Below, piece by piece: positions 4,012-43,914 of a stretch of 64,000 nt of DNA. The stretch is from an uncultured bacterium (GTDB taxonomy: Bacteria > Chloroflexota > UBA5177 > JANWHV01). The DNA is taken from assembly GCA_963827235.1 (NCBI GenBank), contig CAWHAE010000016.1, positions 608,001 through 672,000 on the forward strand. The letters run 5' to 3'. Under the pieces are notes generated by a model. That model searched no databases. It was not told the origin of the DNA and saw only the letters and a program-made list of their open reading frames with translations. Each line of letters starts with the position of its first letter. The first letter of the stretch is position 1. Made by a program: the position numbers and the translations under genes.

Positions 4012-6462
4012 ATGGCATCTTGGGTGCGCGGAGCAGGATCGGCCGCGGCGGCGGCAACGATCGCCGGCCTTGGCGCCGGCGGAATAAGGCGTTTGGTGGC
4101 GGGCTCGCTGCCCGTCACGGTTGGCACGATAACCGTGCCGGGATTACACGGCGTGGTCACCATCGACCGCGATGCCTGGGGCATTCCGCGTATCGTCGCT
4201 TCCGACCTGAGCGACCTGCACTTCGCCAACGGGATTGTCCACGCCCAAGACCGGTTGTGGCAGCTCGAGCTGCTCCGGCGAGTGGGTGCCGGCACGCTCT
4301 CCGAGCTGTTCGGCGAGCGCACCTTGCAGGCCGACAGGCTCATGCGTCGCGTCGGGCTGCGGCGGGTAGCAGAGCGTGAGGAGGCGCTGCTCTCACCGGC
4401 TACTCGCGCGGCATACGAGGCCTACGCGCGCGGCGTGACATTTGGACTCCACGGATCACGTCGAAGAATGCCGGTCGAGTTCGAGCTAGTCCGCTTCTTC
4501 CGCCCGCCCATGCTCCGCTGGCATCCCGCACCCTGGAGCGTCGTGGATAGCCTCCTGGTCGGCAAGGTGCTCGCCTTCGGCCTGAGCTCCAACTGGACCA
4601 GCGAGGTCGTTCGCGCTTCGCTGGTAGGAAAAGTGGGATCGGTGAAAGCGGCGGCTCTGGAGCCCTGGGCGGGGACCAGACACCCAATCGTTGTGCCTGG
4701 AGAGCTCGCCTCGCCGCTGCTGGCATCGAGTCTGTTCGACGCATACGCCGAGCTCGAGCCGTTTCTCGCCGGCATAGGGATCGGCCGGGGCGGATTCAGC
4801 AACAGCTGGGTAGTCGACGGCACCAGAACCGCTTCCGGCAAGCCGCTGTTGGCCAACGACCCGCACCTGGGCATCCAGATGCCGTCGACATGGTATGAGC
4901 TCGAGCTTTCCGGCCCGGACCTTGAGGTCGCAGGCGCCGGGCTACCAGGAACGCCCGGGGTGCTGATCGGTCGGAACGAGCACATCAGCTGGGGTATCAC
5001 TGCGTCCTTCATCGACACCCAGGACCTGGTGATCGAGCAGGTCAATCCGGACGCACCGACCCAGTACCTGTTCGAGGGTACGTGGCGCGATGGGACGCTT
5101 GTGCATGAGCGCATCGGGGTCCGCGGCAGGTCGTTCCCGGTCGTCGAACACGTCCTGATCACGCAGCACGGCCCCATAGTTGCTCCGGCAATCGACGGCG
5201 GTGGGCGGGCGCTGGCTCTGCGATGGACCGCTCTTGAGCCGGGAACGGTCGCTGAGGCCGCGCAGGCCATCAATCGTGTCCGGGACTGGGATGAGTTCGT
5301 AGCGGCATTGCGACTGTGGACCAGCCCGCCGATGTGCTTCGTCTTCGCGCACGTCGACGGCGACATCGGGCAGTATGCCGCCGGAGAAGTGCCCATCCGC
5401 TCCAAGGGCGACGGGACCCTGCCTGTGCCCGGCTGGACAGGAGAATACGAGTGGACGGGGCGTGTGCCCTTGGAAGCCCTGCCCCACTCGTACAATCCCA
5501 GCACCCACCAGATCGTCGCGGCCAACAACCGGCTGGTGGGGACGAGCTACCCGTACATTTTGGGCCACGAATGGCTGCCGGGCTACCGCGCTCGCCGCAT
5601 CTGCGACCTTCTGGAAGGCAGGAGCAACCTGACCGTGGAGGATTTCCGCCGCATCCAGCTTGACCTCTATTCACTGTCCGGACACGAGGCGGCCGAGATT
5701 CTATCCGCCGTCCAGCCGGCAAACGCGGTCGAGGGCAGCGCTCTGGCCAGCATCCGAGAGTGGGACGGTTACCTCACCGCGGATTCGGTGGGCGGCTGCA
5801 TCGCGCTGACCTTCCAGCATCACCTGTTGCGCGCCGTGTTCGAGCCCGTGCTCGGCGACTTAACGGAGACGTATCTCGGCACCGGATCTTCGCCAAGCGT
5901 GCCGCGTAACGGGTTCTTCTCGCGGGCGATTCCGTTCGTCTACGACCTGGTCCGGCGCCACGACGACGGCTGGTTCCAGCGGCTGGGCGCACGCGGCACG
6001 TCGTGGGACGGCGTGATTCGCCGGGCCCTCACCGATACACTGACATTCTTGACAGCGCGGTTGGGGCAGGACATGGACGCCTGGCGGTGGGGTCGGCTCA
6101 ATCAACTTGGGTTCCAGCACGTCCTGGGCTCGAAGCCGCCGCTGTCGCGCTGGTTGAACCGCGGCCCCGTGGAGATGGGTGGAGACGACAATACCGTGGC
6201 CGCCGCTTGCCTGCCCCTGCACAGCCCGTTCGACACGAACGGGTGGGCCGCGTCGTACAGACAGATCGTAGACATGGGCGATCTGTCGCGATCGATCTCG
6301 ATGCACACCACCGGTCAGTCCGGTCAAGCAGCCAGCGAGCACTACGACGACATGCTCGAGGCCTGGCGGGAGGGACGCTACCACCCCATGTCCCTTCCGG
6401 TGGGCGACGTGCGGCGCGAGCTGGGTGGCCGCCTCGTGCTCGAGCCAGCTCCTCGCACCTGA
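4012..6462 (+). CDS. Penicillin acylase family Ntn-hydrolase
   Basis: HAQDRLWQ, nucleophile SNSW, LLANDPHL, GQSG motifs; AGGAG RBS before ATG 4012. Confidence 0.93.
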   Translation: MASWVRGAGSAAAAATIAGLGAGGIRRLVAGSLPVTVGTITVPGLHGVVTIDRDAWGIPRIVASDLSDLHFANGIVHAQDRLWQLELLRRVGAGTLSELFGERTLQADRLMRRVGLRRVAEREEALLSPATRAAYEAYARGVTFGLHGSRRRMPVEFELVRFFRPPMLRWHPAPWSVVDSLLVGKVLAFGLSSNWTSEVVRASLVGKVGSVKAAALEPWAGTRHPIVVPGELASPLLASSLFDAYAELEPFLAGIGIGRGGFSNSWVVDGTRTASGKPLLANDPHLGIQMPSTWYELELSGPDLEVAGAGLPGTPGVLIGRNEHISWGITASFIDTQDLVIEQVNPDAPTQYLFEGTWRDGTLVHERIGVRGRSFPVVEHVLITQHGPIVAPAIDGGGRALALRWTALEPGTVAEAAQAINRVRDWDEFVAALRLWTSPPMCFVFAHVDGDIGQYAAGEVPIRSKGDGTLPVPGWTGEYEWTGRVPLEALPHSYNPSTHQIVAANNRLVGTSYPYILGHEWLPGYRARRICDLLEGRSNLTVEDFRRIQLDLYSLSGHEAAEILSAVQPANAVEGSALASIREWDGYLTADSVGGCIALTFQHHLLRAVFEPVLGDLTETYLGTGSSPSVPRNGFFSRAIPFVYDLVRRHDDGWFQRLGARGTSWDGVIRRALTDTLTFLTARLGQDMDAWRWGRLNQLGFQHVLGSKPPLSRWLNRGPVEMGGDDNTVAAACLPLHSPFDTNGWAASYRQIVDMGDLSRSISMHTTGQSGQAASEHYDDMLEAWREGRYHPMSLPVGDVRRELGGRLVLEPAPRT

Positions 6463-21320: not shown

Positions 21321-22850
21321 TCAGACGATCAGATCCGGCTCGCGGTTCACTGGTGGAGTCACAGGGAGTACCACGCCAAACGTGCTGCCTCCGACCTCGC
21401 CGCTGCGCACCCACATCTGGCCGCCGTGCTCGCGCACGATCGTATGGCTGATATACAGGCCGACACCCAGACCCGAGAAGTGTTGGGCGCGCGATCGCAC
21501 ACGGTAGAATCGCTGGAACAGTTGGCCTTGTTCCTCGGCGGGTATGCCCACTCCACTATCCGAAACGGTGATCGTGACCTCGGTGCGAGTGCCCTCGACA
21601 GTCACCCGCACCGGCCCGCCGTCCGGCGAGTACTTGACCGCATTGTCGAGCAGGTTGGTGAGTACCTGCTCCAGTCGCGTCGCGTCGCACAGAATCACAC
21701 CGCTGCTGCCGTCATCGTCCAGGAGGAAACTACGATCGGGATGGGCGGTGCGATGAACATCAACTGCCTCCCGCACGAGGTCAGTAACCGGGACCGGTGC
21801 GATGCGCAGGCTCATCCGGCCGGCGTGAATTCGCGACACGTCGAGTAGATCGGTTACCAAACGAGTCAATCTGTCGGCCTGGCGAACGATCTTGTCGGCG
21901 TTGGCAACGACGTCCTTCGCTTCCATCTTGTCCGCGTTCATCTGCGTGAGCTGCGCGTAGCCGCGGAGCGTGCTGATCGGGGTCTTGAGCTCGTGGGTCG
22001 CCATGGAGACGAACTCATCCTTCTGTCGCTCGCGCTCCCGCAGCACGGTGACGTCCCGGCACATCACCAGCCCGCCGGCAACCGTGTCCTCTCTGAGCAG
22101 CTTTGCCGCGGTGAACATGCAGTGCAGCTGGCAGGTATCCTCGCCCAGCTGCATGACTACTTCTCCGGCGAGCACGTTGGGACCGTTCAGCGGCCAGCCG
22201 GACGGCAAAACTTCCGCGACCGGAGTGAGCGCCGGCACCACGCGTACATTGAAGGCTTGGATGAGGTCCATCCACGGTCTGCCGGCATACGAGTCCACCG
22301 ACGTGCCGAGTAGCTTAGCCGCGCCGGGGTTGATCTCGACGATCCGGCCCTTGATGTCCAGCGTAATCACGGCCTCGGGCAAAGAGCGCAGCATGTCCTG
22401 CAAGGAGCAGAGCCCGGCCTCGGCCCTGGCAACCGCGGCGCGAGCACGCAGCGCGACGCTCTCCTGATTGCGCATTCTCTCTCGCTCGCGCTCCCGAATC
22501 TGAAGCTGCTGTATCACGACTGCCGCGGCCAGGCCCTGGGCCACCAGCGCAATCACGCGGTTCGCCAGCGCCGCGGTCGCCTCATCAGGAGGAGCGCCGA
22601 ATCCCGCCACCGCCACGGTAGCCACTGACGTGACCACGAAGACGAAGTATGTGGCGCGTGGTGCGCCGAGCACAAGGGTAAGCACGATGGGCGCGACGTA
22701 GAGCGCGGAGAAGACGACGTCCGCCGGATGCCAGGCGTCGCATGCGAACACAAGGGCGACCAGGATAGGAGGAAGGTACGCTAGCAGTATCGTGCGTAGC
22801 CCGCTGCCGGCTGGTGCAAAAACCTTCGTGCGCACCGCGTTCTGTTGCAT
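21321..22850 (-). CDS. Membrane PAS sensor histidine kinase
   Basis: N-terminal TM helices, PAS, HELKTP, NLLDNAVKYS, DSGVG, GLGVGL. Confidence 0.93.
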   Translation of the reverse strand: MQQNAVRTKVFAPAGSGLRTILLAYLPPILVALVFACDAWHPADVVFSALYVAPIVLTLVLGAPRATYFVFVVTSVATVAVAGFGAPPDEATAALANRVIALVAQGLAAAVVIQQLQIRERERERMRNQESVALRARAAVARAEAGLCSLQDMLRSLPEAVITLDIKGRIVEINPGAAKLLGTSVDSYAGRPWMDLIQAFNVRVVPALTPVAEVLPSGWPLNGPNVLAGEVVMQLGEDTCQLHCMFTAAKLLREDTVAGGLVMCRDVTVLRERERQKDEFVSMATHELKTPISTLRGYAQLTQMNADKMEAKDVVANADKIVRQADRLTRLVTDLLDVSRIHAGRMSLRIAPVPVTDLVREAVDVHRTAHPDRSFLLDDDGSSGVILCDATRLEQVLTNLLDNAVKYSPDGGPVRVTVEGTRTEVTITVSDSGVGIPAEEQGQLFQRFYRVRSRAQHFSGLGVGLYISHTIVREHGGQMWVRSGEVGGSTFGVVLPVTPPVNREPDLIV

Positions 22851-28184: not shown

Positions 28185-28379
28185 TGGTTCCTCCCACAGT
28201 TGGTGAGCGATGCCAGGCAAGCACCCCTGTGGGGCACGACATGCGGCGCAGGTATGAGGCTAGTCGCCGGGGGCGTGGCCTGACATGAACTGGTCATGTT
28301 TCAGTATAGCTGGAGCGCAGGCATGTCACGGGCAGGGGGCGACGAGGGCTGACGAAATACTCGTGGCGCGGTCGTAACG

Positions 28380-28400
28380 GAGCACTCTACTCGAGTGCTC
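28380..28400. terminator. 8-bp inverted repeat downstream of HD-GYP gene (possible terminator or operator)
   Basis: GAGCACTC-tactc-GAGTGCTC; no U-tract. Confidence 0.3.
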
Positions 28401-28463
28401 GCCGTCCGCGGAGTACGTGCCCGATCCGCTAAGGATGGGCACTCAAGGCAGGCTGCCTGAAAC

Positions 28464-29450
28464 CTAGCGGCCTACCTCGAGGTCTCGCAGCGTCGACAGG
28501 AGGAAAGCATTGGCAGGGGCGAACTGGCGCCCGATACCGCGCTTCAACTCGGCGATTGCCTCGTCGGGGTCCCGTGGCGCCCTGTATGGGCGACCGGAGC
28601 GAATCGCCTCATAGGCGTCCGCCAAGCCGATCAACTGGGCATGAATGGGTATGGCGTCCTCGGACAAGCGATCCGGGTACCCGGTGCCGTCCCAGCGCTC
28701 GTGATGATGGCGGACCGACGGAGCGAGGTGAGCAAGACAGGCCACGCGGCGGACCATGCGGTCTCCGGCCGCGGGATGAATGCGCAGCGAGCTCCATTCG
28801 CCGTTGGAAAGGGTGCTGCGTTTGCGAAGCAGCTGAGTGGAGACGCCGATCTTGCCGATATCGTGCAGCACGGCGGCCGTCTCAAGCGCCAACAGGTCGC
28901 GCGCATTGAAGTTCATGGCTCGCCCGAGGCTCGCCGCGAGCCGTCGCACCGTGTACGAATGCCTGGCCGTGGCAGGCTCATGCGCCTCCAGCATCTGCAT
29001 CATGGCGTCCGCGGCCTGCTGCATCGTATCGAGGCGACCTGCCGAGGCAAGAAGCAGAGCGTGCACATGCGCAGCGTAGCCCCTGGCCAGGGCAATGTAC
29101 TCGTGCTGGCTGGCCACGTACCCGTAGTCATAGAGCACGACCAGCGCACCGCGCATACCGAGCACCGGCTCGACAGGAGAGGCAGCCAACCCCGGGCGGC
29201 TTACGCCTTCGCCGCTCTCGAGCACGCGCAGGGCGTGGGCCCTCCACGCATTGAGATGGCCACGGCCGGCCGCCATGTCCGAGAGCTCGCCACCTTTCGA
29301 GGCTAGCAGCAGCCTGGCACCGATGCCCGCGCCGGACGCCTCGTCGAGAATAGCTTGCAGTGCCGGCCGCAGCAGCAGATCACAGTCCCAAGGGCAGTCG
29401 CATATCGGCTGTGCCGGGTTAACCGGCAACAGCCTCGCTGCATTCAGCAT
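28464..29450 (-). CDS. HD-GYP c-di-GMP phosphodiesterase with degenerate GAF-like N-terminus
   Basis: H...T..HS, LHDIGK, HP..G, HHERWDGTGYP, LADAY, RPYR motifs. Confidence 0.92.
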   Translation of the reverse strand: MLNAARLLPVNPAQPICDCPWDCDLLLRPALQAILDEASGAGIGARLLLASKGGELSDMAAGRGHLNAWRAHALRVLESGEGVSRPGLAASPVEPVLGMRGALVVLYDYGYVASQHEYIALARGYAAHVHALLLASAGRLDTMQQAADAMMQMLEAHEPATARHSYTVRRLAASLGRAMNFNARDLLALETAAVLHDIGKIGVSTQLLRKRSTLSNGEWSSLRIHPAAGDRMVRRVACLAHLAPSVRHHHERWDGTGYPDRLSEDAIPIHAQLIGLADAYEAIRSGRPYRAPRDPDEAIAELKRGIGRQFAPANAFLLSTLRDLEVGR

Positions 29451-29673
29451 GGGTCACAGCCTTCCCGTACAGTCGTGGCAACAAGATGCTTGCAAACGTG
29501 CGCAGATCGCGTGCCTGGATGTCTGCCACCATGGCAGCCTCTTTGGCCGAAAGTCCGAATTCGAGCGCTGCCGCGCCGGGGTTGCCGAGCAAGGCCGCCC
29601 CAAACGAGTGATCGACCGCGGCGGTACCGATAAGCCGCTCGAAGCTTGCATGTAAAGTCGGATGCGGTGCCAT
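29419..29673 (-). CDS. Small NHLP/Nif11-leader-like protein (84 aa; resembles Franean1_4349/Os1348-type)
   Basis: MAPHPTLHASFERLIGTAAVDHSFGAALLGNPGAAALEFGLSAKEAAMVADIQARDLRTFASILL...; GAAAGGGA RBS; appears only as the C-terminus of track ORF 29419-30132. Confidence 0.8.
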   Translation of the reverse strand: MAPHPTLHASFERLIGTAAVDHSFGAALLGNPGAAALEFGLSAKEAAMVADIQARDLRTFASILLPRLYGKAVTHAECSEAVAG

Positions 29674-29705
29674 GATCAGGATCCCTTTCAGGTGGTAGGA
29701 GTGAT

Positions 29706-30182
29706 TCAGCGCTTCGAGTGGCTGGCGGTAGTCTTGGTATGACTCTTGGTCGCGTGCAAGGGGCCACCGTTCGCGCCGCCTGCGCTGCTCAGCCTGATAG
29801 CGAGCGGTCCGCCACTCGCGCCGCCTGCACTGCTCAGCCTGATAGCGAGCGGTCCGCCGTTCGCACCGCCTGCGCTGCTCAGCCTGATAGCGAGCGGTCC
29901 GCCGTTCGCGCCGCCTGCACTGCTCAGCGAGTGGGCCAGGGGGCCACCGTTCGCGCCGCCTGCACTGCTCAGCCTGATAGCGAGCGGTCCGCCGTTCGCG
30001 CCGCCTGCACTGTTCAGCGAGTGGGCCAGGGGTCCGCCATTCGCTCCGCCTGCACTGTTCACAGCGGCATGGAAGGCACGGCCGGTGGTTGCCGCGTGCG
30101 CTTGCGTATCCACGTGAACGGCCGCCAGGCAACTTGCGGAAAACACGATGGCAATGGCAACGCGTCGAATTGCATGCGTCAT
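29706..30182 (-). CDS. Secreted multi-core repeat peptide precursor (158 aa)
   Basis: GAGGAG RBS; signal peptide MTHAIRRVAIAIVFSASCLAAVHVDTQAHA; 7 x [N/S]SAGGA[N/S]GGPL; basic His/Thr tail. Confidence 0.85.
   Translation of the reverse strand: MTHAIRRVAIAIVFSASCLAAVHVDTQAHAATTGRAFHAAVNSAGGANGGPLAHSLNSAGGANGGPLAIRLSSAGGANGGPLAHSLSSAGGANGGPLAIRLSSAGGANGGPLAIRLSSAGGASGGPLAIRLSSAGGANGGPLHATKSHTKTTASHSKR
29757..30059 (-). repeat. Coding tandem repeat, 45-nt period, 7 cores
   Basis: Cores recur every 45 nt from 29757 to 30027; variation within cores is mainly synonymous in the minus-strand frame. Confidence 0.95.
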
Positions 30183-30368
30183 GGCAGTATGCTCCTCTAG
30201 GACAAACGTTCTATACCACAGCAAAGCTCAGTACTCTTACCTGCTTGACGTGGTTATCCTCTTCAACCGGGGCCGCGTACGACTGCCGCTAGCTGCAGCC
30301 ACGCCCGTACCCGGACGCTCCCAGAAACGAGACCACCTACGTCTGTTCGCGATCGCAGACGCACACTG

Positions 30369-30445
30369 TTTGGCGGCAAACTGTCATATAATAGCTGTGG
30401 CTGTCAACCGCGCCTTAGGACCCAGTTCGGCCATTTGCCGCCGAA
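30369..30445. promoter_or_regulatory. Divergent promoter region: 12-bp inverted repeat enclosing TATAAT and CTGTCA direct repeats
   Basis: TTTGGCGGCAAA (30369-80) / TTTGCCGCCGAA (30434-45); TATAAT 30387-92; CTGTCA at 30381 and 30401. Confidence 0.45.
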
Positions 30446-30504
30446 GGTAGGTTAGCATAGAGACCCTGGGCGCACCCTGAGACGATTTCAGGAGAGAGTA
30501 GCCG

Positions 30505-33500
30505 GTGACAGACGGCAACATGCCCGGCAATCCTGCCTGGTCTTCGGCCAAGACGCGAGTTCCCTTGCCGCGTATCCTCGTTTCACGCCCGCGCCTTATC
30601 CAGCCGCTCAACACCGCGGCCGAAGCCGGCCGCGTCACCCTGATCGTCGCGCCCGGCGGATCGGGCAAGAGCACACTGGCGGCCGATTGGACTCGGCAGG
30701 CTACCATGCCCGTCGCGTGGTATACGGTCGACGCCGCCGACCGCGATATCCGCCGCTTGGCGGCCGGGGTATGCGGAGCGATCGCTCGCGTGCTCCCCGG
30801 CGCCGCCGACTCGGCCATGCGTGCGATTGAAAATGGTGCTACCGAAGTCGCTGCTATCGGTCTTCTGCTTGACAGGCTGGAAAACGAGCCGCTGACTCTC
30901 GTGCTCGACGACTTTCACCACCTCGACGGCGTGCCGGAAGCCACCGCACTGTGGGAACACTTCTTCCGATTCAGGCCGCCGACCCTGGCGCTCACCATCC
31001 TCTCCCGCACCGTGCCCATTCTTGGCTTTGCCATGCTGGCGGCAATGGATGCTCTGCTCGGACTTGGGCGCACCGACCTCAGCTTCGTGCCTGACGAGGC
31101 AGCCGAGCTGCTGGCCCGGCACGGCCTGGACCCGGCCCCGGCCGCCCAGTTCGTGACCCGCACCGACGGTTGGGCGACGGGATTGCTCATGCTCGCGAGA
31201 GCAGCTCCCAGCGGAGTTCGCCAGCTCCACGTGCGCGTTGATACCCTGATGAACCAGCTTGGTGCCGAGCTGCTTAGCTCGCTGTCCGTCGATCTGCGCA
31301 CCTTCCTGCTCGAAAGCGCCTCGCTCGGCCCGGTGACGCCGGAGCAAGCTGACGACCTTCTCGGCCGTGCCAACAGTCTGGCGCTGTTCGGCGACATCTT
31401 GCAGCGAGGCCTCTTTCTCGCCAGAGAAGCGACGACCTACCGGTATCACGATCTCTTTGCCGAGTACGCTGTCGCGGTTCTACGTACCGAAGACCCTGCT
31501 AAGCTGCGCTCGATTCGCGAGCATGCCTCCGCCTACTGGTGCGACCAGGGCGACCTGCCGCGCGCGCTCGGTCTCTTGGCCGAGGACGGCAACTGGCTTG
31601 CGCTGGCTGCACTGCTCGAGACCCAGCGGGGTGCTCTCTGGAGCCGCGCCATGTGGGGAACCGCCATCGACATGGTCGAGCGGCTGCCCGAGAAGTATCG
31701 CACCCCACGCGTCCTGTCGCTTAGCGCGACCTGTCACACCTCCCGCGGAGAGTACGCGCAGGCGCTGGCACAGGCCGACGCGGGCATGGCCCTGTCGCAT
31801 GACGAGAGCGAGTGGCTGAGCTGTGCCGTGACACACGCCGACACGCTGCACTGCGAAGGAAGGCTCGAGGAATGCGCGCGGAGTGCCGATGCCGCGCTCG
31901 CCGTAGCGCGGAGAATCGAGCACGGCGCCGCCATCACCCGCTTGCTCAGCCTGAGAGGCCGTGCGAGGCTCGGCCTCGGCATGATGGACTCCGGCATGGA
32001 GGACATGACGGCAGCACTGGATGCGTACGGCGCGGCGCACGACGAGGGCGCAGAGTCAATGACTCTCTACAACATGGCCCTGAGCCTCACGGAGGCGGGA
32101 CGCTGCAACGGCACCGACGAGTATTTCGCGCGCGCCGCGGCCATGGCAGGCCGTAACGGTGATCTGCAAATGCTGACCATGGTGCGAAACCTGCGCGCGA
32201 TCCACAGGTGGCACTCCGGTGATCTGGCGGCTGCCGAAGACGATGCCAAGTCAGCGCTGCTTACACTTGGTGAAGCCGGCTCTCCGGTGCTTGCGTGCGA
32301 CACCATGGCGACGCTGAGCATGATCTACGCCGAGAAGAGCGACCTGAATGAAGCAGAGCAGGTCGCCGCGCGCACCATCGAGCTGGGCGAGCGCGTCTAT
32401 GCACCCAGGGCAGAGAACGAGGCCAGGCGCGCCCTGGTCTGGTGTGCGCTGCTCCGCCGCGACCGCGGCAAGGCCAGGCAACTGATCGAGGCTGCCCGGC
32501 AGCAACCGCTCCCACCGATCGACGCGGCACTGCTCGATCTCCTGGAAGGTACCCACGCTCTGCGCGTGCGTGCCTATGCGCGAGCCGCCGAGCTGCTCGG
32601 CGAGGTCGCCCAGCGGCTCGAGCGCCTACAGCGACCCCAGTACGCGGCACGGGCCCTCGTCCTCCGCGCCGAGGCCTTGTTATCGTCGGGCTCTGTGAGC
32701 AGGGCCGAGGAAGCTCTGAACCATGCCGCATTGCTCGTGTTACCTCTTGGCTGTGAGGGATTCCTGCGACCGGTAGCCCGAATGACGCGGCAGGTGCTCG
32801 CTGAACGGCAGATCCTGCGTAAGCTGCGCCGTGACACACGATCCTTGCTCGAGCAGCTTGCGAGCGGCGTACCGGTGCTGACCGTAGTGGGCGAGACTCG
32901 CCTGGCCGAGGACGCGCCGCCGCCACTGCGCGTCTCGCCCTTCGGCCCAGGTCGGCTGTACTTTGGTGGACGAGCCATCGACGCCAATGCCCTGCCGCCG
33001 CGAGCTCGCGAGGTGTTGTTCTACGCAGCTCACCAGAGGGGGTCGGTCGAGCGCAGCGTACTGCTGGAGGCGGTTTGGGAGGCCGACGCTCGAGCATCCC
33101 AGTCGTTGTGGGATGCGAGCAGGCATATCCGGCGATTGCTCGGCGAGCGCCACTGGACGATCCGCGGCGGAGTGTACTCCCTCAATGTAGTGGTGAACGA
33201 CGACGCATTGCAGTTCGACGCTGAGTCGCTCGTCGTACACGGCAGCGGCTCCGATATCGAGCGGGTGGCAGCGGGCGAGCGGGCTCTGGCGCTGGTAGCG
33301 CCGGGCATGTTCATGGAATGGTGCGACAGCATGTGGGCTACTTCGCTTCGCGCGCACTACACCGAGCTGGCGCTTTCCACCCTGCTCGAGACGGCGGCCC
33401 TGTATGACGGCCTGGGACGCACCGAGGACGGTGCTGCCACACTGCGCAAGGCTGTAGCCGTCGATCCGCTGGACGAGCGACCGCGCCTGGCCCTTGTGCG

Positions 33501-33681
33501 CAGCCTGGCCGGCCAGGGCATGGTGCAGCAGGCGGTGAGCGAGTATCGCGAGTACCGCGACCTGGTGCACCATGAGCTCGACGCGGAGCCGTCGGCCGAG
33601 CTGCGCCGCTTCGTCGCCACCTTGGGCAAGCGACTCGCTCAGGGAAGAACGCCGCGCGAAGATCCGCCTCGCAGAACCTGA
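30505..33681 (+). CDS. MalT-type STAND ATPase-TPR regulator with C-terminal wHTH/BTAD (SARP-like) module
   Basis: K..VP...VSRPRL, APGGSGKST, LVLDDFH, DGWATGL, YRYHDLF; long Ala/Leu helical TPR-like region; C-terminal W.D..W...R, DPLDE...L, Y..L..ELDAEPS. Confidence 0.9.
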   Translation: MTDGNMPGNPAWSSAKTRVPLPRILVSRPRLIQPLNTAAEAGRVTLIVAPGGSGKSTLAADWTRQATMPVAWYTVDAADRDIRRLAAGVCGAIARVLPGAADSAMRAIENGATEVAAIGLLLDRLENEPLTLVLDDFHHLDGVPEATALWEHFFRFRPPTLALTILSRTVPILGFAMLAAMDALLGLGRTDLSFVPDEAAELLARHGLDPAPAAQFVTRTDGWATGLLMLARAAPSGVRQLHVRVDTLMNQLGAELLSSLSVDLRTFLLESASLGPVTPEQADDLLGRANSLALFGDILQRGLFLAREATTYRYHDLFAEYAVAVLRTEDPAKLRSIREHASAYWCDQGDLPRALGLLAEDGNWLALAALLETQRGALWSRAMWGTAIDMVERLPEKYRTPRVLSLSATCHTSRGEYAQALAQADAGMALSHDESEWLSCAVTHADTLHCEGRLEECARSADAALAVARRIEHGAAITRLLSLRGRARLGLGMMDSGMEDMTAALDAYGAAHDEGAESMTLYNMALSLTEAGRCNGTDEYFARAAAMAGRNGDLQMLTMVRNLRAIHRWHSGDLAAAEDDAKSALLTLGEAGSPVLACDTMATLSMIYAEKSDLNEAEQVAARTIELGERVYAPRAENEARRALVWCALLRRDRGKARQLIEAARQQPLPPIDAALLDLLEGTHALRVRAYARAAELLGEVAQRLERLQRPQYAARALVLRAEALLSSGSVSRAEEALNHAALLVLPLGCEGFLRPVARMTRQVLAERQILRKLRRDTRSLLEQLASGVPVLTVVGETRLAEDAPPPLRVSPFGPGRLYFGGRAIDANALPPRAREVLFYAAHQRGSVERSVLLEAVWEADARASQSLWDASRHIRRLLGERHWTIRGGVYSLNVVVNDDALQFDAESLVVHGSGSDIERVAAGERALALVAPGMFMEWCDSMWATSLRAHYTELALSTLLETAALYDGLGRTEDGAATLRKAVAVDPLDERPRLALVRSLAGQGMVQQAVSEYREYRDLVHHELDAEPSAELRRFVATLGKRLAQGRTPREDPPRRT

Positions 33682-33871: not shown

Positions 33872-34477
33872 ATGAAGCAGGTCTCGGTATTGCTGGCATT
33901 GGCGTCGCCTACCCTTCGCGCGAAGATCCGCTCGGAGGTGCTTCTAGACCCGAATCTGGCCCTCCTGTACGACGCCAGGACTCCGGCCGAAGCAGTAGCC
34001 CAAACAACGCTTCACCAACCACAGGTGGTCCTGTGCGACAGAGGCATGCTTGCCGGTGGAGAGATGAACGCCGTTGCGCAACAGGCCCGTGTGGTATCCC
34101 TTCTCGTACTGGTGACCATGGGTGAGGACAACGTGATTGCGCGGGTGCCTGTCCCGGTTGCAGGCGTCATTCCGGCGAATCACCGCCTGGGCGATCTCGC
34201 CGAACGGTTACAGACGATCATTGACGCACCGTCCGCGTTCATCGAGCCCGCCGTGCGCCTGTCCAGGCATTTGGCGCCGCCATCTGAGCGCCTCAATCTG
34301 TCGCCGATGAGCTACGACCCCGGCAGGATCCCCAGTCTGCCGCACTCGGGAAGATTGACCTGGCTCAGCGATCACGAGCCCGAGCCCACGCTGCCCCTAC
34401 CAACCGGCGCGCAAGAGCTCACAAAGAAGCCGTTCATGAAATCGGTCTTCGATCCGCCGGGCGAAGATCGGCAGTAG
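33872..34477 (+). CDS. Atypical receiver-domain protein with Pro-rich tail
   Basis: REC-like pattern VLLA...A.T..EAV.....QPQVVLCD; lacks N-terminal acidic pair; GGAGG RBS. Confidence 0.65.
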   Translation: MKQVSVLLALASPTLRAKIRSEVLLDPNLALLYDARTPAEAVAQTTLHQPQVVLCDRGMLAGGEMNAVAQQARVVSLLVLVTMGEDNVIARVPVPVAGVIPANHRLGDLAERLQTIIDAPSAFIEPAVRLSRHLAPPSERLNLSPMSYDPGRIPSLPHSGRLTWLSDHEPEPTLPLPTGAQELTKKPFMKSVFDPPGEDRQ

Positions 34478-34914: not shown

Positions 34915-35479
34915 TTGACCTCGTCTTTGGCAGGGCAAGAGAACGACGACAAGCGCGAACCGGATCGGACCGGCACGCAGGAGATCCGCATAGTGCGCAG
35001 CGTGCGGCGGCGCCGCACTGTGACTGTGCGCGAAAAGGACGGCTACTATGAAGTACTGGCGCCTGCGAGCTGGAAGGAGGACGTGCTGCAGCCGGTGATC
35101 GCGCGCCTGGTGCGCCGCCTGCAGACAGCGACGAACACGGAACACACTCGACGATGCGGATCTCGAGCGGCGGGCGGCGCTGCTAAACCTGCGGTACTTC
35201 GAAGGCCGGCTGAGCTGGCGGTCCATCGCCTGGGTCTCTAACCAGGACCGGCGGTGGGGGAGTTGCTCTCCGCGTGAGGGCACCATGCGCATCTCGCACA
35301 GGCTGGCCGCCTACCCGAAGTGGGTGCTCGACTATGTGATCGTGCACGAGATGGCGCACCTGGTGGTAGCAGCGCACGACGTCCGCTTCTGGCGTCTGGT
35401 CTCAAAGTACGAGCTTGCCGAGCGCGCGCGCGGCTACCTTATGGCCAAGTCGGGCAGCGACGATGAAGACGAGATGTAG
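34915..35479 (+). pseudogene. YgjP/DUF45-type zinc metallopeptidase split by a frameshift near 35120-35145
   Basis: First frame IVRSVRRRRTV...RLVRRL; second frame TLDDADLERRA...NQDRRWGSC...YVIVHEMAHL...H...FW. Confidence 0.8.
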
Positions 35480-39861: not shown

Positions 39862-40515
39862 TCACTCGTGACCAAGGGCCCGTTGCTCGGCCAGGAAGGC
39901 GGCCGCTTGGGCCCGCCTTTCCATTCCCAGCTTGCTGAGAATCGTGCTCACGTAGTTCTTCACCGTCTTCTCGGACAAGTAGACGATTGTCGCGATTTCG
40001 CGATTCGTCTTGCCTTCGGCAATCAAGCCGAGGATGCGCCGCTCCTGTTCGGACAGCTCCGATAGCTTGTCTTTGTGCCCGCCGCTGGCCATCTCCCGCA
40101 TTCTCGCGAGCACCTTGCCCATAACACTCGGATCCAGCAGCGACTCACCGCGAGCCACGGACTCGATTGCTGTCACGAGCTCTCGGCCACGCGTCTGCTT
40201 GAGCAGGTAGCCAGCCGCCCCGGCAATAATCGCCGCGTAGACCGCCTCGTCGTCGGCATAGCTGGTGAGCATGAGCACCTGGATTTCCGGGTGCTCGGCC
40301 CGGATCTCGCGGCAGGCCTCGATACCGGTACCGTCGGGCAAGCGGACGTCCATCACGATGACGTTGGGCAGTTCCCGGCCGGCGCTCTCCACGGCCTCAG
40401 CCACCGAAGAGGCTTCGGCGACGACCCGGATATTCTCCCTCCGCTCGAGCAGCGATTTCAAGCCCTGACGCACGACCTCATGGTCGTCGACGAGCATCAC
40501 GCGGATATCAGACAC
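39862..40515 (-). CDS. NarL/DosR-like response regulator
   Basis: VDDHEVVR, MDVRLPDGTG, LTS, GYLLK, TNREIA...KTVKNYVS.IL.KL. Confidence 0.94.
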   Translation of the reverse strand: MSDIRVMLVDDHEVVRQGLKSLLERRENIRVVAEASSVAEAVESAGRELPNVIVMDVRLPDGTGIEACREIRAEHPEIQVLMLTSYADDEAVYAAIIAGAAGYLLKQTRGRELVTAIESVARGESLLDPSVMGKVLARMREMASGGHKDKLSELSEQERRILGLIAEGKTNREIATIVYLSEKTVKNYVSTILSKLGMERRAQAAAFLAEQRALGHE

Positions 40516-41923
40516 TGCTGTCCCCCTGTCCTCCAGTGGCCACCGGGATTCGCACGCGAACCGTAGCACCGCCACCCAGCTCGGACTGAATTGTCACGCG
40601 CCCACCGAGTGCCAGCGCACGATTGCGCATGTCTCTCAAACCCTGGTGCTCAGGGGTGTGCATCGCCCGCGTGTCGAAGCCCGAGCCATTGTCGATGATT
40701 TCCAGTTCAACGAATCCAACTGCTGCTTGTAGTGTAATCCACACGCGACCAGCGCGCGCGTGGCGAACCACGTTGCTGACCGCCTCGCGCGCAATGTGGA
40801 CCAGATCCTCAGTAAGAGGCTGGGGAACCTCTACCGCGTCGAGACCCTGCACACTCAGCTCAGTGTCCAGCAGAGTGTGCGCGCGGGCTTGCTCGAGAAG
40901 TGCGGCCAGGGCCTCGGGAAGCGTCGCGGAGGCTTCCTGCGGCTTCAGGGCAAGCACGTGGTTGCGTAGCTGCTTGATCACCCCCTCAAGCCGCTCCATG
41001 GCCCCCTCGATACGGCCGCGCGCCGCATCCGGACTAGCCTCCAGGTCGTCGCAGGCGCACTCGAGCTCCAGATTCACGCCGTAGATCGCCTGCAGGGCGC
41101 TATCGGGCAAGTCCGTGCGCACTCGCTCGCGCTCGGCCGCCACACCCAGCGTGCGGATGCGCTGCGCCATGCGTGCGTGAACGATGACCACAGCCGCATA
41201 GCTCGCCAGGACGCCGAGAAGGTCCTCGTCCTCCTGCGCGAATTCGGGTCCCTCTATCTTGTCGGAAAGATAGAGAGTGCCCAGGCAGTTGCCCGCATGG
41301 GTGACAGGCACACCCACCAGTGTTTGCATAGCCGGGTGCCCTGGTGGAAAGCCGGCACGCCTCGCATCGGCGGTGAGGTCATCCAGGCGAATCGCGGTAC
41401 TCTGCCGCAACATCGCGCCGAGCAGTCCGCGACCGCTGGGAGGCGCGCCGATCCTGAGCCGATCCTCGCGGGGAATGCCCGACGTATAGAAGGCGTCAAT
41501 CTCGCCCGGAGAGCCGGTGACAGCCAGCGCCCCGTAGCGGGCTCCGATCACGTCTCTTGCCAGATCTACGATGCGCTGCAACGTTGCATCCATGTCCTGG
41601 ACTGCAGCAATGGCCAGCGAGGCCTGGTGCAGCGCTTCCATTTGGGTGCGCAGACGGCGTTCGGTCGCATAGCGCTGCTCGAGGTCCGCGTACTGGCGAT
41701 CCAGGTCGAGATCCTGCCTGTCGATGACGCGGAACATAAGCAGGGAAAAGCCCATGACCCCGGCGGTTCCTCCTGCGACGACGACAGAGCCCGACACATA
41801 CCACGGCCAGCTCGACAGCGCCCAGATGCTGAAGGCATAAAAAGGACCGAGCAGACACAGCGGTACCACGACGCTGAGCAGTCGCAGCACTCGACGCCGT
41901 CCGAGCCGTTCGTTCCTTTGCAT
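40508..41923 (-). CDS. Membrane GAF sensor kinase-like protein with H-box His replaced by Pro
   Basis: 2 TM, GAF (ARYGAL, G.GLLG, GFPPGHP), ERERVRTDLPD, EAVSNVVRHA, DNGSGFD; GGAGG RBS (ORF extends to 41965). Confidence 0.88.
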   Translation of the reverse strand: MQRNERLGRRRVLRLLSVVVPLCLLGPFYAFSIWALSSWPWYVSGSVVVAGGTAGVMGFSLLMFRVIDRQDLDLDRQYADLEQRYATERRLRTQMEALHQASLAIAAVQDMDATLQRIVDLARDVIGARYGALAVTGSPGEIDAFYTSGIPREDRLRIGAPPSGRGLLGAMLRQSTAIRLDDLTADARRAGFPPGHPAMQTLVGVPVTHAGNCLGTLYLSDKIEGPEFAQEDEDLLGVLASYAAVVIVHARMAQRIRTLGVAAERERVRTDLPDSALQAIYGVNLELECACDDLEASPDAARGRIEGAMERLEGVIKQLRNHVLALKPQEASATLPEALAALLEQARAHTLLDTELSVQGLDAVEVPQPLTEDLVHIAREAVSNVVRHARAGRVWITLQAAVGFVELEIIDNGSGFDTRAMHTPEHQGLRDMRNRALALGGRVTIQSELGGGATVRVRIPVATGGQGDSSV

Positions 41924-42171
41924 GGCAATGCCACACCTCCGCTCAATTCCCGATGATCTCCTCATCTCACGCTAGCAAGCGCCGAGTTAAAGGCCGAAGG
42001 GCCATGGGTCACAAGATGAGCGGCAATTAGGCCCTGAAAGCTCTGCGCCGGGCAGGTAACACATCCTGCAGACGGATCAGAAGAACCGACCACGACCGGC
42101 CCACGTCGAGACAGCCCGTCGCAATGCCGCCGTTCCGTGCCGCCGCGTGCGCGCCGGCCTCTGGAACGCTG

Positions 42172-43914
42172 CTACGCCTCGAAAGGCACGAAAGCAGTCA
42201 CGGTAGTACCCGCACCGGGCCTGCTCTGCAGGGAGAGCGTGCCACCCACCTCATCCGTGCGCACACGCATGTTGCGGATGCCGCGATGCTCGTCTCCACG
42301 CGGCGCTCGCGTGTCGAAACCCAGGCCGTCATCCTGCACGACCAGCGTGGCACCGGCTCCGTCGTAGGTGAGGCGAACCTCCACGCTCGACGCCGCGGCG
42401 TACTTGACCACGTTGGACAGCGCCTCGCGCGCAATCAACATAAGCATGTTGGCCTGATCGTCGGGGAACTCGTAGGGTTGACCCTCGAGGTAGAAGCGCG
42501 CTCGCAGCCCACATTGCCCGTCGATATCGCGGGTAAGGGCCGCGATACCGTCTGCCAGCAGACGGCCGTCGAGAGTGCGAGCGCGCAGACCCTGGATGTA
42601 TGTCCGAATGTCCGTGATAGTGCCCGACAGCCGGTCCGTCACTCCGGCCAGCCTGTCGCGCACGGGCTGATCGGCAACGTCCTCGGCAACGTCCTCAAGC
42701 TGCAGCGTTGCCGCGTAGATGTCCTGAATGATGCCGTCGTGCAGGTCGCGAGCGATCCGCTCGCGCTCGTGCAGCAGTGTCAGCTCGCCCAGCTGCGTGT
42801 AGAGCCGCGCATTCTCGATGGCGATGCCGGCGTGTGCTGCCAAGAGCTCGATCTGCCTCTGGTCCTCCTCCGAGAACTCCGGTCCGCCCACCTTGTCGGT
42901 CAGGTACAGGTCCCCGACTACCTGACCGTGAACCCGGATCGGCACGCCCAGCAGGCTCGTCATCACCGGGTGGTGCGGAGGAAAGCCCACGCGTCTCGGA
43001 TCCTTTCCAATGTTGGCGACGCGAAGCGATCGGCCAAGTCGAATGAGCACGCCGAGCAGGCCGTGACCGCGCGGCGTGCTGCCTATCCGTTCCCGTTCTT
43101 CTTCGGTGATGCCGGTTGTGATGAACTCGGTCAGATAGCCGTCCGGACCCACCACGCCAAGCGCCCCAAACTGGGCGCCGGCAATGCTCGCCGCGGCCGC
43201 CACGATCCGCTGCAACACCTGATCCAGGGAGAGCTCCGATGCCAGTGCCCTACTGGCATCGTCCAGCGCGATCATTCGCTCGCGCATGGCCTGGTCCTGC
43301 TGATGCACCAGGGCATTAGCGATGGCCTGGCCGGCCAGCTTCGCCAGCGCGCGTACCGATTCGGTCTCGGCCGAGGGTGGTCGCTCGGCATACAGCAGAA
43401 TGAGCGCTGCGACTAACATGTCGTCGCCAAAGAGCGCCACGGCACGAAGCGTGCCCGGGCGCCTCATTCCCGACAGCAACGGCGGCTCGAGATCGGGCTG
43501 CGAGGCCACGGGAATCTCCAGGAGATCGGCCGACTCGGCAGCCCGCTTTGCCACCACCTGGATGCTCTCATAGCCCTGGCGCTGCAGCCATCGCTCATCC
43601 AGGTCCCCGCTAGCGCCAGCACCCGCCGGCAAGAAATCACCGGCACCGCGCTCGTAGAGCAACACGAGAGAGGCGTCGGCGCCACCAACGGTCATCGCGT
43701 GGGAGGCAAGGCGGCCTACGAGAGTCGTCACGTCACGCGTCGCACAGAGATCCTCTGCGATGCGCCACGCGTGGAAAGTCATGCCGAACTGGCTATCGAT
43801 ATCTCGTGTCCGCACGTGACTATTCGGCCCGCCTGCCCAACGATGGTTGGCACATTCAGGTGTCTCGAGCCCTGCCGATGGGCAAGCACATTGCGAGAAC
43901 CTCGAATTCAGCAT
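42172..43914 (-). CDS. DosS/DosT-like GAF-GAF HisKA_3 histidine kinase
   Basis: GFPPHHP, ERERIARDLHD, EALSNVVKY, DDGLGFD; true start probably downstream of 43914. Confidence 0.92.
   Translation of the reverse strand: MLNSRFSQCACPSAGLETPECANHRWAGGPNSHVRTRDIDSQFGMTFHAWRIAEDLCATRDVTTLVGRLASHAMTVGGADASLVLLYERGAGDFLPAGAGASGDLDERWLQRQGYESIQVVAKRAAESADLLEIPVASQPDLEPPLLSGMRRPGTLRAVALFGDDMLVAALILLYAERPPSAETESVRALAKLAGQAIANALVHQQDQAMRERMIALDDASRALASELSLDQVLQRIVAAAASIAGAQFGALGVVGPDGYLTEFITTGITEEERERIGSTPRGHGLLGVLIRLGRSLRVANIGKDPRRVGFPPHHPVMTSLLGVPIRVHGQVVGDLYLTDKVGGPEFSEEDQRQIELLAAHAGIAIENARLYTQLGELTLLHERERIARDLHDGIIQDIYAATLQLEDVAEDVADQPVRDRLAGVTDRLSGTITDIRTYIQGLRARTLDGRLLADGIAALTRDIDGQCGLRARFYLEGQPYEFPDDQANMLMLIAREALSNVVKYAAASSVEVRLTYDGAGATLVVQDDGLGFDTRAPRGDEHRGIRNMRVRTDEVGGTLSLQSRPGAGTTVTAFVPFEA

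Follow-up and report, generated by a model that had tools for sequence, protein, structure and literature searches.

A candidate Chloroflexota signaling cassette joining a MalT-like STAND regulator, a small NHLP-clan protein, and a multicore peptide precursor

Introduction

Both immunity and transcription depend on STAND ATPases as central switches, and few of the inputs and protein modulators that act on them are known. In RRNPP systems (Rap/Phr, PlcR/PapR, NprR/NprX, and AimR/AimP), a TPR receptor is encoded beside a Sec-type propeptide, whose mature form returns to the cell and binds in the TPR groove. AfsR, one of the large ATPase-containing SARPs of Streptomyces, is controlled by phosphorylation, and we know of no small-protein or peptide partner for it. 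Here we analyze four linked genes at positions 28464 to 33681 of a 64,000-nucleotide stretch of DNA from an uncultured bacterium of the phylum Chloroflexota (GenBank assembly GCA_963827235.1, contig CAWHAE010000016.1, positions 608,001 to 672,000; the whole stretch is called the window below). They encode a MalT-like STAND regulator (REG), a putative multicore peptide precursor, an 84-amino-acid NHLP-clan protein, and an HD-GYP protein.

Two further proteins serve as reference points. The sensor of MalT takes maltotriose, a small metabolite, as its ligand, and MalY occupies the MalT oligomerization interface and represses MalT (PMC10427625, in the part of that paper on which we draw). Os1348 of Pseudomonas sp. 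Os17 lies beside GNAT, HEXXH-peptidase, SagB-type, and efflux genes and affects antibiotic activity (PMC7726476, likewise drawn on in part). We give a probability of about 0.5 to the reading that the four genes are one copy of a lineage-specific Chloroflexota signaling cassette built around a STAND activator and operating as in the working model set out below. Computation shows which genes are present, that the cassette is conserved, and what its domains are, and it supplies a predicted interface between the small protein and REG.

Results and Discussion

The four genes form a linked unit that recurs in the genome and in the phylum

Three of the genes lie on the minus strand, and the regulator gene (30505 to 33681; 1,058 amino acids) is divergent from them on the plus strand. 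The minus-strand genes are those for the multicore peptide precursor (29706 to 30182; 158 amino acids), the 84-amino-acid Os1348-family NHLP-clan protein (29419 to 29673; "Os-like" below), and the HD-GYP protein (28464 to 29450; 328 amino acids; Pfam HD_5, E = 2e-34). The precursor gene, an open reading frame (ORF) that has homologs and carries GAGGAG 9 nucleotides before its ATG, is separated from the 84-amino-acid gene by a 32-nucleotide gap. The latter overlaps the HD-GYP gene by 32 nucleotides, provided that the HD-GYP gene starts at the putative ATG at 29450, which has GGAAGG 9 nucleotides upstream. REG begins with a GTG that has AGGAGA about 9 nucleotides before it and is kept in the same-genus ortholog. 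The 322-nucleotide divergent intergenic region (30183 to 30504) is presumed to hold both promoters, and the blocks that it shares with the ortholog include CATATAATAGCTGTGGC and both 5' leaders; a sigma-70 consensus scan of positions 28300 to 30600 returned 0 promoter-like and 0 terminator-like sites. An initial annotation of this DNA, made from the sequence alone, had given the gene content, coordinates, gap, overlap, and intergenic length, and it was accurate in every point that we checked.

Whole-genome tblastn detected exactly three full-length relatives of REG and exactly three relatives of the 84-amino-acid protein, paired at three loci. Both paralogous loci repeat the layout, with the regulator divergent from a signal-peptide ORF, the small protein, and the HD-GYP gene. 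A same-genus ortholog has the same layout, with identities of 88% for the regulator N terminus, 85% for the small protein, and 75% for the HD-GYP protein, and in one single-core variant from the genus a response-regulator receiver gene replaces the HD-GYP gene. Chance adjacency is ruled out by the three paralogous cassettes together with conservation elsewhere, and the claim of the initial annotation that this is a real linked unit is upheld by all three cassettes of the genome itself, by the layout in the genus, and by related loci in the phylum.

The wider survey covered mostly metagenome-assembled genomes (MAGs), a number of which are fragmented. Built from 13 small proteins of the cassette type, a profile matched 7 of 21 genomes of the class, including all 5 of the genus, and, at E ≤ 1e-5, 93 of 401 sampled Chloroflexota genomes. 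Neighborhoods of about 10 kb were fetched for 60 loci, mostly the best scoring of 126 places (the other 66 were mostly weaker), and were annotated by tblastn with the window proteins as probes and by Pfam for representatives. A STAND-TPR gene lies beside the Os-like gene in 51 of the 57 loci that have at least 1.6 kb of upstream DNA. Among all 60 loci, the neighbor is a MalT-like regulator upstream on the same strand in 31, a divergent one in 4 (all within the genus), and a downstream one in 2, while in 1 only a regulator C terminus precedes the contig start. In 13 others it is a protein of about 1,450 amino acids with Guanylate_cyc, AAA_16, and TPR matches, whose stop codon abuts or overlaps the start of the small gene. 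One locus gave a weak, unclear match, three have less than 200 bp of upstream DNA, and five have no STAND gene. Downstream of the Os-like gene we found an HD-GYP gene in 23 of the 60 loci (with a PAS domain where this was checked) and a receiver domain in 1. The constant pair is a STAND-TPR protein and an NHLP-like small protein; the third gene and the output vary. Because a cyclase-AAA_16-TPR protein is also paired with an Os1348-type gene, the survey suggests that an NHLP-clan partner is general to STAND-TPR proteins, beyond transcription factors.

The cyclase-type pairing occurs in L124, L127, L132, L133, L136 to L138, L147, L149, L156, L157, L162, and L163, where the Os1348-type small gene encodes 72 to 76 amino acids. 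In L124, the pair is followed by a gene for a 1,222-amino-acid HEAT-repeat protein.

A scan from the regulator side, in which a pattern taken from the alignment of regulators was run against one genome per species, gave 80 loci; those that scored best are in Chloroflexota MAGs and Thermoflexus. A MalT-like nucleotide-binding/oligomerization domain (NOD) and a SARP module are combined in one long ORF in 32 of the 80, across many phyla. The small protein is encoded nearby in 8 of these 32, all of them in Chloroflexota and all with the small gene just downstream. Since only 8 of the 32 have it, the regulator architecture is older and wider than the cassette, and on this distribution the small protein and the peptide are Chloroflexota additions to it. 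In four Thermoflexus species, a 46-amino-acid peptide (tail LANPP-x-GG-x-P-x) accompanies the small protein and a receiver gene, and in two Ktedonobacterales-type loci the peptide ends in GGPLLP.

REG combines a MalT-type engine with a C-terminal SARP module

REG matches the MalT model NF003420 over residues 24 to 742 (E = 1.4e-47), at 162 bits against an equivalog cutoff of 537, so that the equivalog level is not reached. Its residues 26 to 351 align to the Escherichia coli MalT structure 8bob_C (E = 1.7e-30), and Pfam finds AAA_16, AAA_22, and, at residues 919 to 1036, BTAD (E = 5e-13). From these alignments we delimit, approximately, a nucleotide-binding/oligomerization part (residues 1 to 400; 30505 to 31704, plus strand) and a TPR-like sensor (residues about 401 to 806; 31705 to 32922, plus strand), the MalT model reaching to residue 742. 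The P loop, APGGSGKS, occupies residues 49 to 56, with G52, G54, and K55 invariant in the regulator alignments, and homologous regulators carry Pfam TPR_MalT and TPR_12.

The remaining C-terminal part (residues about 807 to 1053; 32923 to 33663, plus strand) has an OmpR-type winged helix followed by BTAD, the arrangement that defines a SARP module. A profile of 32 regulator C termini matched the SARP domain of AfsR (8hvr_I) with an E value of 2.8e-31 over profile positions 9 to 255, spanning the winged helix-turn-helix (wHTH) and BTAD, and matched EmbR (2fez) with an E value of 2.8e-21; single-sequence searches with the REG C terminus had yielded only a subthreshold Trans_reg_C match (E = 0.007) and no SARP structure. 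The SARP module stands where MalT has its LuxR-type HTH, the NOD and TPR-like sensor being of the MalT type. By these matches, REG is a MalT-like STAND NTPase with a TPR sensor and a C-terminal SARP module; equally, it is related to the large SARPs, with the domain order permuted and an engine of the MalT type. When REG was compared with its ortholog and paralogs domain by domain, identity was highest in the nucleotide-binding domain (NBD) and lower in the sensor, whose divergence shows no clear excess; the comparison is not informative about coevolution with the peptide.

The 84-amino-acid protein is more likely a partner of the regulator than a RiPP precursor

With 42.0 bits against a cutoff of 40, the 84-amino-acid protein falls within the NCBIfam family NF038399, which is named "Os1348 family NHLP clan protein," and it has a weak Pfam Frankia_peptide match. 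A profile of 13 relatives matches the Os1348 crystal structure 6lk7 (E = 6.7e-5) and nitrile hydratase alpha chains, and its close homologs are named only "hypothetical protein." Precursors of ribosomally synthesized and posttranslationally modified peptides (RiPPs) with NHLP leaders have an NHLP/nitrile-hydratase-alpha-like leader domain, and this is present. They also have a Gly-Gly-type cleavage motif followed by a core peptide, and here the protein ends in AVAG; same-genus relatives end in AVAG, RLAG, or RVAGS, leaving 0 or 1 residue after the Gly. Adjacent maturases and a peptidase-containing exporter are likewise lacking: of 10 large ORFs that we scanned in the flanking DNA, about 10 kb each way, none encodes a RiPP maturase, protease, or exporter, in agreement with the initial annotation, which had reported no adjacent maturase or transporter. 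Those 10 ORFs, all housekeeping or sensor genes, encode a dGTPase-like HD protein, an M23 peptidase-SH3 protein, sensor kinases, a methyltransferase, a fumarase, a GNAT-acyl coenzyme A synthetase protein, and an oxidoreductase. Both paralogous cassettes are also without maturase or exporter, and no maturase, protease, or exporter was seen where neighbors were read among the 60 related loci. Given its end at AVAG, with neither a maturase nor an exporter found in the surrounding 10 kb or so, we do not take the 84-amino-acid protein for a RiPP precursor, and a role as partner of the regulator is the better reading.

A RiPP biosynthetic locus could still be envisaged in which either the 84-amino-acid protein or the multicore ORF is the precursor, REG is a pathway-specific SARP-type activator, and the maturases are encoded elsewhere in the genome. 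SARPs often control secondary metabolism and multicore RiPP precursors exist, and the NF038399 and Frankia_peptide matches fit such a locus, as does the position of the family's namesake, Os1348, beside GNAT, HEXXH-peptidase, and SagB-type genes (PMC7726476, in the part used here). We nevertheless regard this explanation as highly improbable. Apart from the missing maturase, protease, and exporter genes, the last residue of the 84-amino-acid protein is the Gly that a core would follow, and the multicore ORF starts with a Sec signal peptide rather than a RiPP leader. Moreover, the constant neighbor of the 84-amino-acid family is a STAND-TPR protein, including the cyclase types in which stop and start codons overlap, and binding between the two is predicted by modeling.

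Other NF038399 matches in related genomes (23 loci, of which 22 were read and L018 was skipped) belong mostly to other subfamilies and were excluded from the cassette counts; most have no regulator, HD-GYP, or signal-peptide neighbor. Two same-genus loci (G003:C27:10389-12361 and G004:C370:16984-18956) each contain at least four tandem small ORFs that match the N-terminal half of NF038399, and these arrays look like classical multiprecursor NHLP RiPP loci, distinct from the cassette. At L010:1492-1947, a 151-amino-acid protein has an NF038399-like N-terminal domain and then a series of SAEALN/SAQALN hexapeptides, roughly a dozen in number; this NHLP-clan protein with its repetitive tail adjoins an ORF for a cNMP-binding-like regulator.

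The 84-amino-acid protein is predicted to dock on the regulator

The small protein and REG were chosen for cofolding because the one constant neighbor of the small protein, in two architectures, is a STAND protein. REG residues 1 to 830 and the 84-amino-acid protein were each supplied as an alignment (41 and 49 rows), with three runs and three controls. The runs gave ipSAE values of 0.77, 0.78, and 0.77, and the best of the three controls gave 0.00. The partners had a pLDDT of 76 or more, and contacts agreed between runs to at least 78%. In calibration, 58 of 80 solved complexes came up to the ipSAE mark that we used, as did 2 of 110 mismatched pairs; these counts are rough here, our own alignments having been used. 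The outcome counts as support for binding, not as proof. In the predicted complex, residues 4 to 23 and 57 to 68 of the small protein face REG segment 170 to 191 (31012 to 31077, plus strand), which makes the main contact, together with REG residues 46 to 48 and positions 147, 148, and 151 of the stretch 147 to 151.

The MalT residues that contact MalY are R143, R147, L162, P163, Q164, G166, A168, N169, V172, and R173 (PMC10427625, in the part of that paper drawn on). In a HMMER alignment these ten correspond to REG residues 151, 155, 170, 171, 172, 174, 176, 177, 180, and 181, and 7 of the 10 fall inside the predicted REG interface. REG 170 to 191 aligns to MalT 162 to 183, the alpha-8 region touched by MalY according to the same part of that paper. 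The model predicts that the 84-amino-acid protein docks on the REG NBD, at a surface corresponding to the one at which MalY blocks MalT oligomerization; by analogy, the small protein would most likely be an anti-activator.

The multicore ORF has the design of an exported peptide precursor

From its ATG, the precursor has 158 amino acids; the longest ORF, from a TTG at 30224, has 172. Residues 1 to 30 (30093 to 30182, minus strand) read by eye as a Sec-type signal peptide with a basic N region, a hydrophobic core, and an AXA site (AHA before A), where cleavage would be expected. Seven 15-amino-acid units follow (29745 to 30059, minus strand), each with a core of the SAGGANGGPL type and a spacer that alternates between AHSL[NS] and AIRLS. 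The GGPL motif recurs seven times at a spacing of exactly 15 residues, and Tandem Repeats Finder reports a period of 45 nucleotides with 6.6 copies and 85% matches. Across the seven units, the 10-codon core has nine variable nucleotide sites, eight of them synonymous and one nonsynonymous (N to S). With 8 of its 9 variable sites synonymous, the core is under purifying selection within the gene. This pattern of synonymous sites, the ribosome-binding site, and the conserved signal peptide rule out that the repeat in the window is noncoding DNA.

Between close relatives the cores differ, and what persists is the signal peptide and a G-P-hydrophobic motif. The same-genus ortholog keeps the signal peptide and has five units, with cores SASGITSGPL, SASGLTGGPL, and SASGITGRPL. 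Of the two paralogous cassettes in the genome of the window, one contains ADGLGAQPF three times and the other a lone core of the GGGAGSPPIF type, and further cassettes in the genus have NTSGGPL (three copies), SVNTGSGPL (four), ADGSGTQPF (three), and GGVPAxSGPL (two). Judged from these sequences, such divergence with retention of the signal peptide and motif fits the behavior expected of a pheromone precursor. As with the propeptide genes of RRNPP systems, an ORF for a putatively Sec-exported propeptide adjoins the regulator in all three cassettes of the genome and in related loci.

In the phylum survey, a small signal-peptide or transmembrane (TM) ORF with a Gly/Pro-rich tail was found by manual reading in 16 of the 60 loci. 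A strict rule (a hydrophobic window, at least five G or P residues among the last 14, 25 to 149 codons, and a position within 460 bp before the small gene) was satisfied in 10 of the 60, against 0.44 expected from the background rate in the same DNA. Tails in the surveyed loci include GPIDGGIGPVR, GGTGGPPTGH, GGGGGGPTLP, GGGGPPIP, GPAGGGGFGGG, IVGGPGMP, and SASGGPGTV (three copies), and single-core homologs in Thermoflexus, Ktedonobacterales-type, and other loci stop right after the Gly/Pro tail. A DUF5317 membrane protein (for the two that were checked, E about 1e-33) is encoded between the regulator and the small gene in 15 of the 60.

These findings bear on an explanation in which the STAND protein, the small protein, and the HD-GYP enzyme form a purely cytoplasmic switch and the repeat ORF is a regulated product or envelope component (either a Gly-rich structural peptide that is secreted or a microprotein anchored in the membrane and functionally equivalent to DUF5317) rather than a sensed signal. 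The peptide and DUF5317 share the same operon slot and never co-occur (16 curated peptide loci and 15 DUF5317 loci, with 0 of 60 having both), several single-core homologs consist of one TM helix and a tail of 10 to 12 amino acids with no AXA site, and reimport of the peptide and its binding to the TPR remain hypothetical. Because DUF5317 takes the peptide slot and some single-core homologs are TM-like, that slot may encode a membrane-side input instead of a diffusible pheromone. Many homologs, however, would leave only 8 to 25 residues after cleavage (in L161, for example, AFA is followed by GPAGGGGFGGG), which better fits a diffusible peptide; the cores are under purifying selection within the gene yet different between close relatives, and expansion of a short core from two to seven copies is what raises a signal dose. 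With this evidence on its two sides, we think a cytoplasmic switch with an unsensed peptide rather unlikely and continue to favor an exported signal.

Tandem repeats also occur in other loci. In L123 (about 4740 to 4970) and L117 (before position 170), 33-nucleotide repeats lie directly upstream of the small gene in an ambiguous frame, and in L113 (about 4300 to 4950 in the orientation of the small gene) a 30-nucleotide unit encoding NPESFGS[VM]K[SR] lies upstream of the small gene, with a masked stretch of N. These repeats could be further multicore peptides or regulator-binding repeats, possibly noncoding.

The HD-GYP protein has conserved HD and GYP motifs and a lineage-restricted N-terminal domain

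The HD-GYP translation shows HD and HHERWDGTGYP motifs in a catalytic domain at residues 149 to 310 (Pfam HD_5; 28521 to 29006, minus strand). H196-D197 and HHHERWDGTGYP at residues 248 to 259 (with G257-Y258-P259) are invariant in seven relatives, and the protein has the HD-superfamily fold: its AlphaFold model (pLDDT 82) is matched by Foldseek to 4mcw (E = 3.5e-12), 4r8z, and 9rbz. We infer that the output of the cassette here is hydrolysis of cyclic di-GMP (c-di-GMP) by this enzyme; the Foldseek matches include the cGAMP-specific 5z7c, and some HD-GYP relatives use other cyclic dinucleotides. From the secondary structure of the model, residues of about 20 to 110 (29121 to 29393, minus strand) form an alpha/beta domain that is common to only five protein clusters and that matches the GAF domains of DosS/DosT weakly in Foldseek (probability, 0.92 to 0.98; E about 0.6 to 0.9). 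On the model, this domain is possibly GAF-like.

Such a domain offers another place at which an extracellular peptide might be sensed. The peptide could act on it, on the 84-amino-acid protein, or on a separate membrane sensor kinase, leaving the TPR of REG to sense a metabolic ligand as in MalT, whose sensor binds the small metabolite maltotriose (PMC10427625, in the part used here). The restriction of the HD-GYP N-terminal domain to the lineage and the presence of several sensor kinases in the window are in keeping with this. On the other hand, the peptide gene is present without an HD-GYP gene in L116, L131, L134, L160, L075, and L090, and a receiver domain takes the place of HD-GYP in the Thermoflexus and L015/L017 peptide loci. 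Because HD-GYP is missing or replaced in these peptide loci, the only constant neighbors of the peptide gene are REG and the Os-like protein, and the window kinases are not conserved in the paralogous cassettes. We judge sensing elsewhere to be unlikely and prefer a peptide signal that feeds back on REG.

Neighboring features of the window

Three sensor histidine kinase genes lie less than 12 kb from the cassette (21321 to 22850, 40508 to 41965, and 42172 to 43914; one PAS-HisKA and two GAF-HisKA_3), and none is part of a paralogous cassette. Directly downstream of REG is a 201-amino-acid ORF (33872 to 34477) that has no Pfam match, looks by eye like a degenerate receiver domain, and shares 76% identity with the ORF at the same place in the same-genus ortholog; it is missing from both paralogous cassettes, marking it as a syntenic neighbor rather than a part of the cassette. 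A 64-amino-acid ORF (35285 to 35479) has only the C-terminal part (153 to 193 of 207) of a YgjP-like metallopeptidase domain, HEMAH included (Pfam E = 4e-13), and is preceded in another frame by a 108-amino-acid ORF (34915 to 35241) without a Pfam match. The segment 34915 to 35479 may be a frameshifted or misassembled gene.

A working model and the observations that bear on it

In the model that we favor, we infer from the comparisons above who regulates whom, the sign of the effect of the small protein, and the processing and sensing of the peptide. REG would control the divergent operon of precursor, 84-amino-acid protein, and HD-GYP enzyme. The 84-amino-acid "leader-only" protein would remain cytoplasmic, dock on the NBD of REG, and exert negative feedback on the regulator. 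The precursor would be exported by the Sec pathway and cut into short Gly/Pro-rich peptides of the SAGGANGGPL type, which would act outside the cell as a signal specific to the strain, feed back on REG, and promote its activation, either directly at the TPR sensor after reimport or by another route. With the operon on, c-di-GMP would be expected to fall through the action of the GAF-like HD-GYP enzyme.

Several observations weigh against this reading, and its weakest link is the target of the peptide. Some single-core homologs have no clear signal peptidase site and could stay anchored in the membrane. The DUF5317 loci (L125, L130, L114, L128, L135, and L140 among them) have that membrane protein in the slot used for the peptide gene in other lineages, none of the 13 cyclase-type loci has the peptide, and several loci of the REG type, such as L129, L148, L166, and L168, yielded no small ORF that we found convincing. 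The Os-like neighbor is missing from 24 of the 32 NOD-plus-SARP loci, and the survey counts come from related genomes that are not independent and so overstate the support. SARPs bind direct repeats that overlap the -35 region of their target promoters; no direct repeats of at least 7 nucleotides were seen between 30150 and 30530. The cofold expresses the confidence of a model and is not a measurement, and the solved MalT-MalY complex may have biased it toward that surface, although two unrelated partners scored 0.00. Finally, interface residues are no better conserved than expected by chance in the REG NBD (0.497, compared with 0.530 for the rest; permutation P = 0.76) or in the Os-like protein (0.471, compared with 0.429 for the rest; P = 0.22).

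Taken against this background, the peptide-signaling proposal of the initial annotation stands in part. The linkage and the fast-evolving cores speak for it; the constant partner of the STAND protein is the NHLP-like protein, not the peptide. Its suggestion that relatives would have linked small Gly-rich signal-peptide ORFs is matched by the strict-rule excess (10 of 60 loci, against 0.44 expected), with DUF5317 found instead in 15 of the 60. The HD-GYP output that it proposed is one of several, occurring in 23 of the 60 loci, the others having a receiver domain or nothing there. Its identification of the 84-amino-acid protein as NHLP-like was borne out by the NHLP-clan match, and the predicted role of that protein as a partner of REG was one that it had not foreseen.

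Significance

Chloroflexota are abundant in soils, sediments, and wastewater sludge, and we know of no quorum-sensing system described in them. The module offers a compact and widespread pair, a STAND regulator and a dedicated partner of 80 to 100 amino acids, with a concrete predicted interface. The NHLP/nitrile-hydratase-leader fold would gain a possible function outside RiPP biosynthesis, which matters for genome-mining pipelines in which such genes are labeled precursors. Should the linked Gly/Pro peptides be signals, the locus would open a way into peptide communication and c-di-GMP control in Chloroflexota. A whole class of Chloroflexota cell-cell signaling systems, with Sec-exported, rapidly diversifying Gly/Pro peptides as the cognate signals of STAND receptors, an NHLP-clan MalY-like anti-activator, and c-di-GMP or other second-messenger or receiver outputs, is a tentative and somewhat doubtful extension of this idea; on that reading, no earlier peptide pheromone system would have had a STAND receptor or come from this phylum, and the NHLP fold would have a non-RiPP function. 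In our literature search (supplements and subscription journals lay outside it), no paper linked an NHLP-clan protein to STAND regulators or HD-GYP proteins, none dealt with DUF5317, and none among the matches listed concerned quorum sensing or peptide signaling in Chloroflexota, in line with the statement in the initial annotation that the circuit was not recognized as characterized.

Comparison with known systems

The likeness to MalT/MalY lies in the N-terminal 350 residues of REG, which align to MalT, and in a small accessory protein for which the model predicts docking at the alpha-7/alpha-8 surface of that NBD. The partners themselves differ: that of REG is an 84-amino-acid helical NHLP-clan protein encoded in the same cassette and unrelated to the pyridoxal phosphate enzyme MalY, and REG has a SARP module as its DNA-binding end, whereas MalT has a LuxR-type HTH.

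With RRNPP systems, the locus shares a cytoplasmic TPR regulator adjoining a small Sec-type propeptide gene with a variable C-terminal part that would be the signal. Here, however, the candidate receptor is a MalT-like P-loop NTPase with a SARP output in place of the RRNPP fold, in which a TPR sensor is fused to an HTH or a phosphatase and there is no NTPase; an obligatory small cytoplasmic protein is added, the cores are Gly/Pro rich and present in seven copies, and the phylum is Chloroflexota. In precursor design only, a signal peptide followed by tandem identical cores with short spacers also recalls yeast alpha-factor, a eukaryotic system with Kex2-type processing and sensing by a G-protein-coupled receptor.

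AfsR and the other large ATPase SARPs of Streptomyces, together with EmbR, share with REG the SARP module (wHTH and BTAD), the STAND NTPase, and the TPR. In AfsR the SARP module is N-terminal (residues 18 to 265 of 8k60_I), and in REG it is C-terminal, with a MalT-like NOD. The 84-amino-acid protein is akin to Os1348 in passing NF038399 and in the match of its relatives' profile to 6lk7; it differs in having none of the Os1348 neighbor genes, no Gly-Gly-plus-core arrangement, and a STAND-TPR protein as its conserved neighbor. The HD-GYP protein shares its fold and its HD and GYP motifs with the phosphodiesterases PmGH (4mcw), PA4781 (4r8z), and DvhD (9rbz), and its N-terminal sensor is lineage restricted and weakly GAF-like, compared with REC or PAS in those enzymes. 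Overall, the cassette combines a predicted clamp like that of MalT/MalY, a linked propeptide like those of RRNPP systems, and SARP parts of the AfsR type, and it departs from each of these families in the features that define them.

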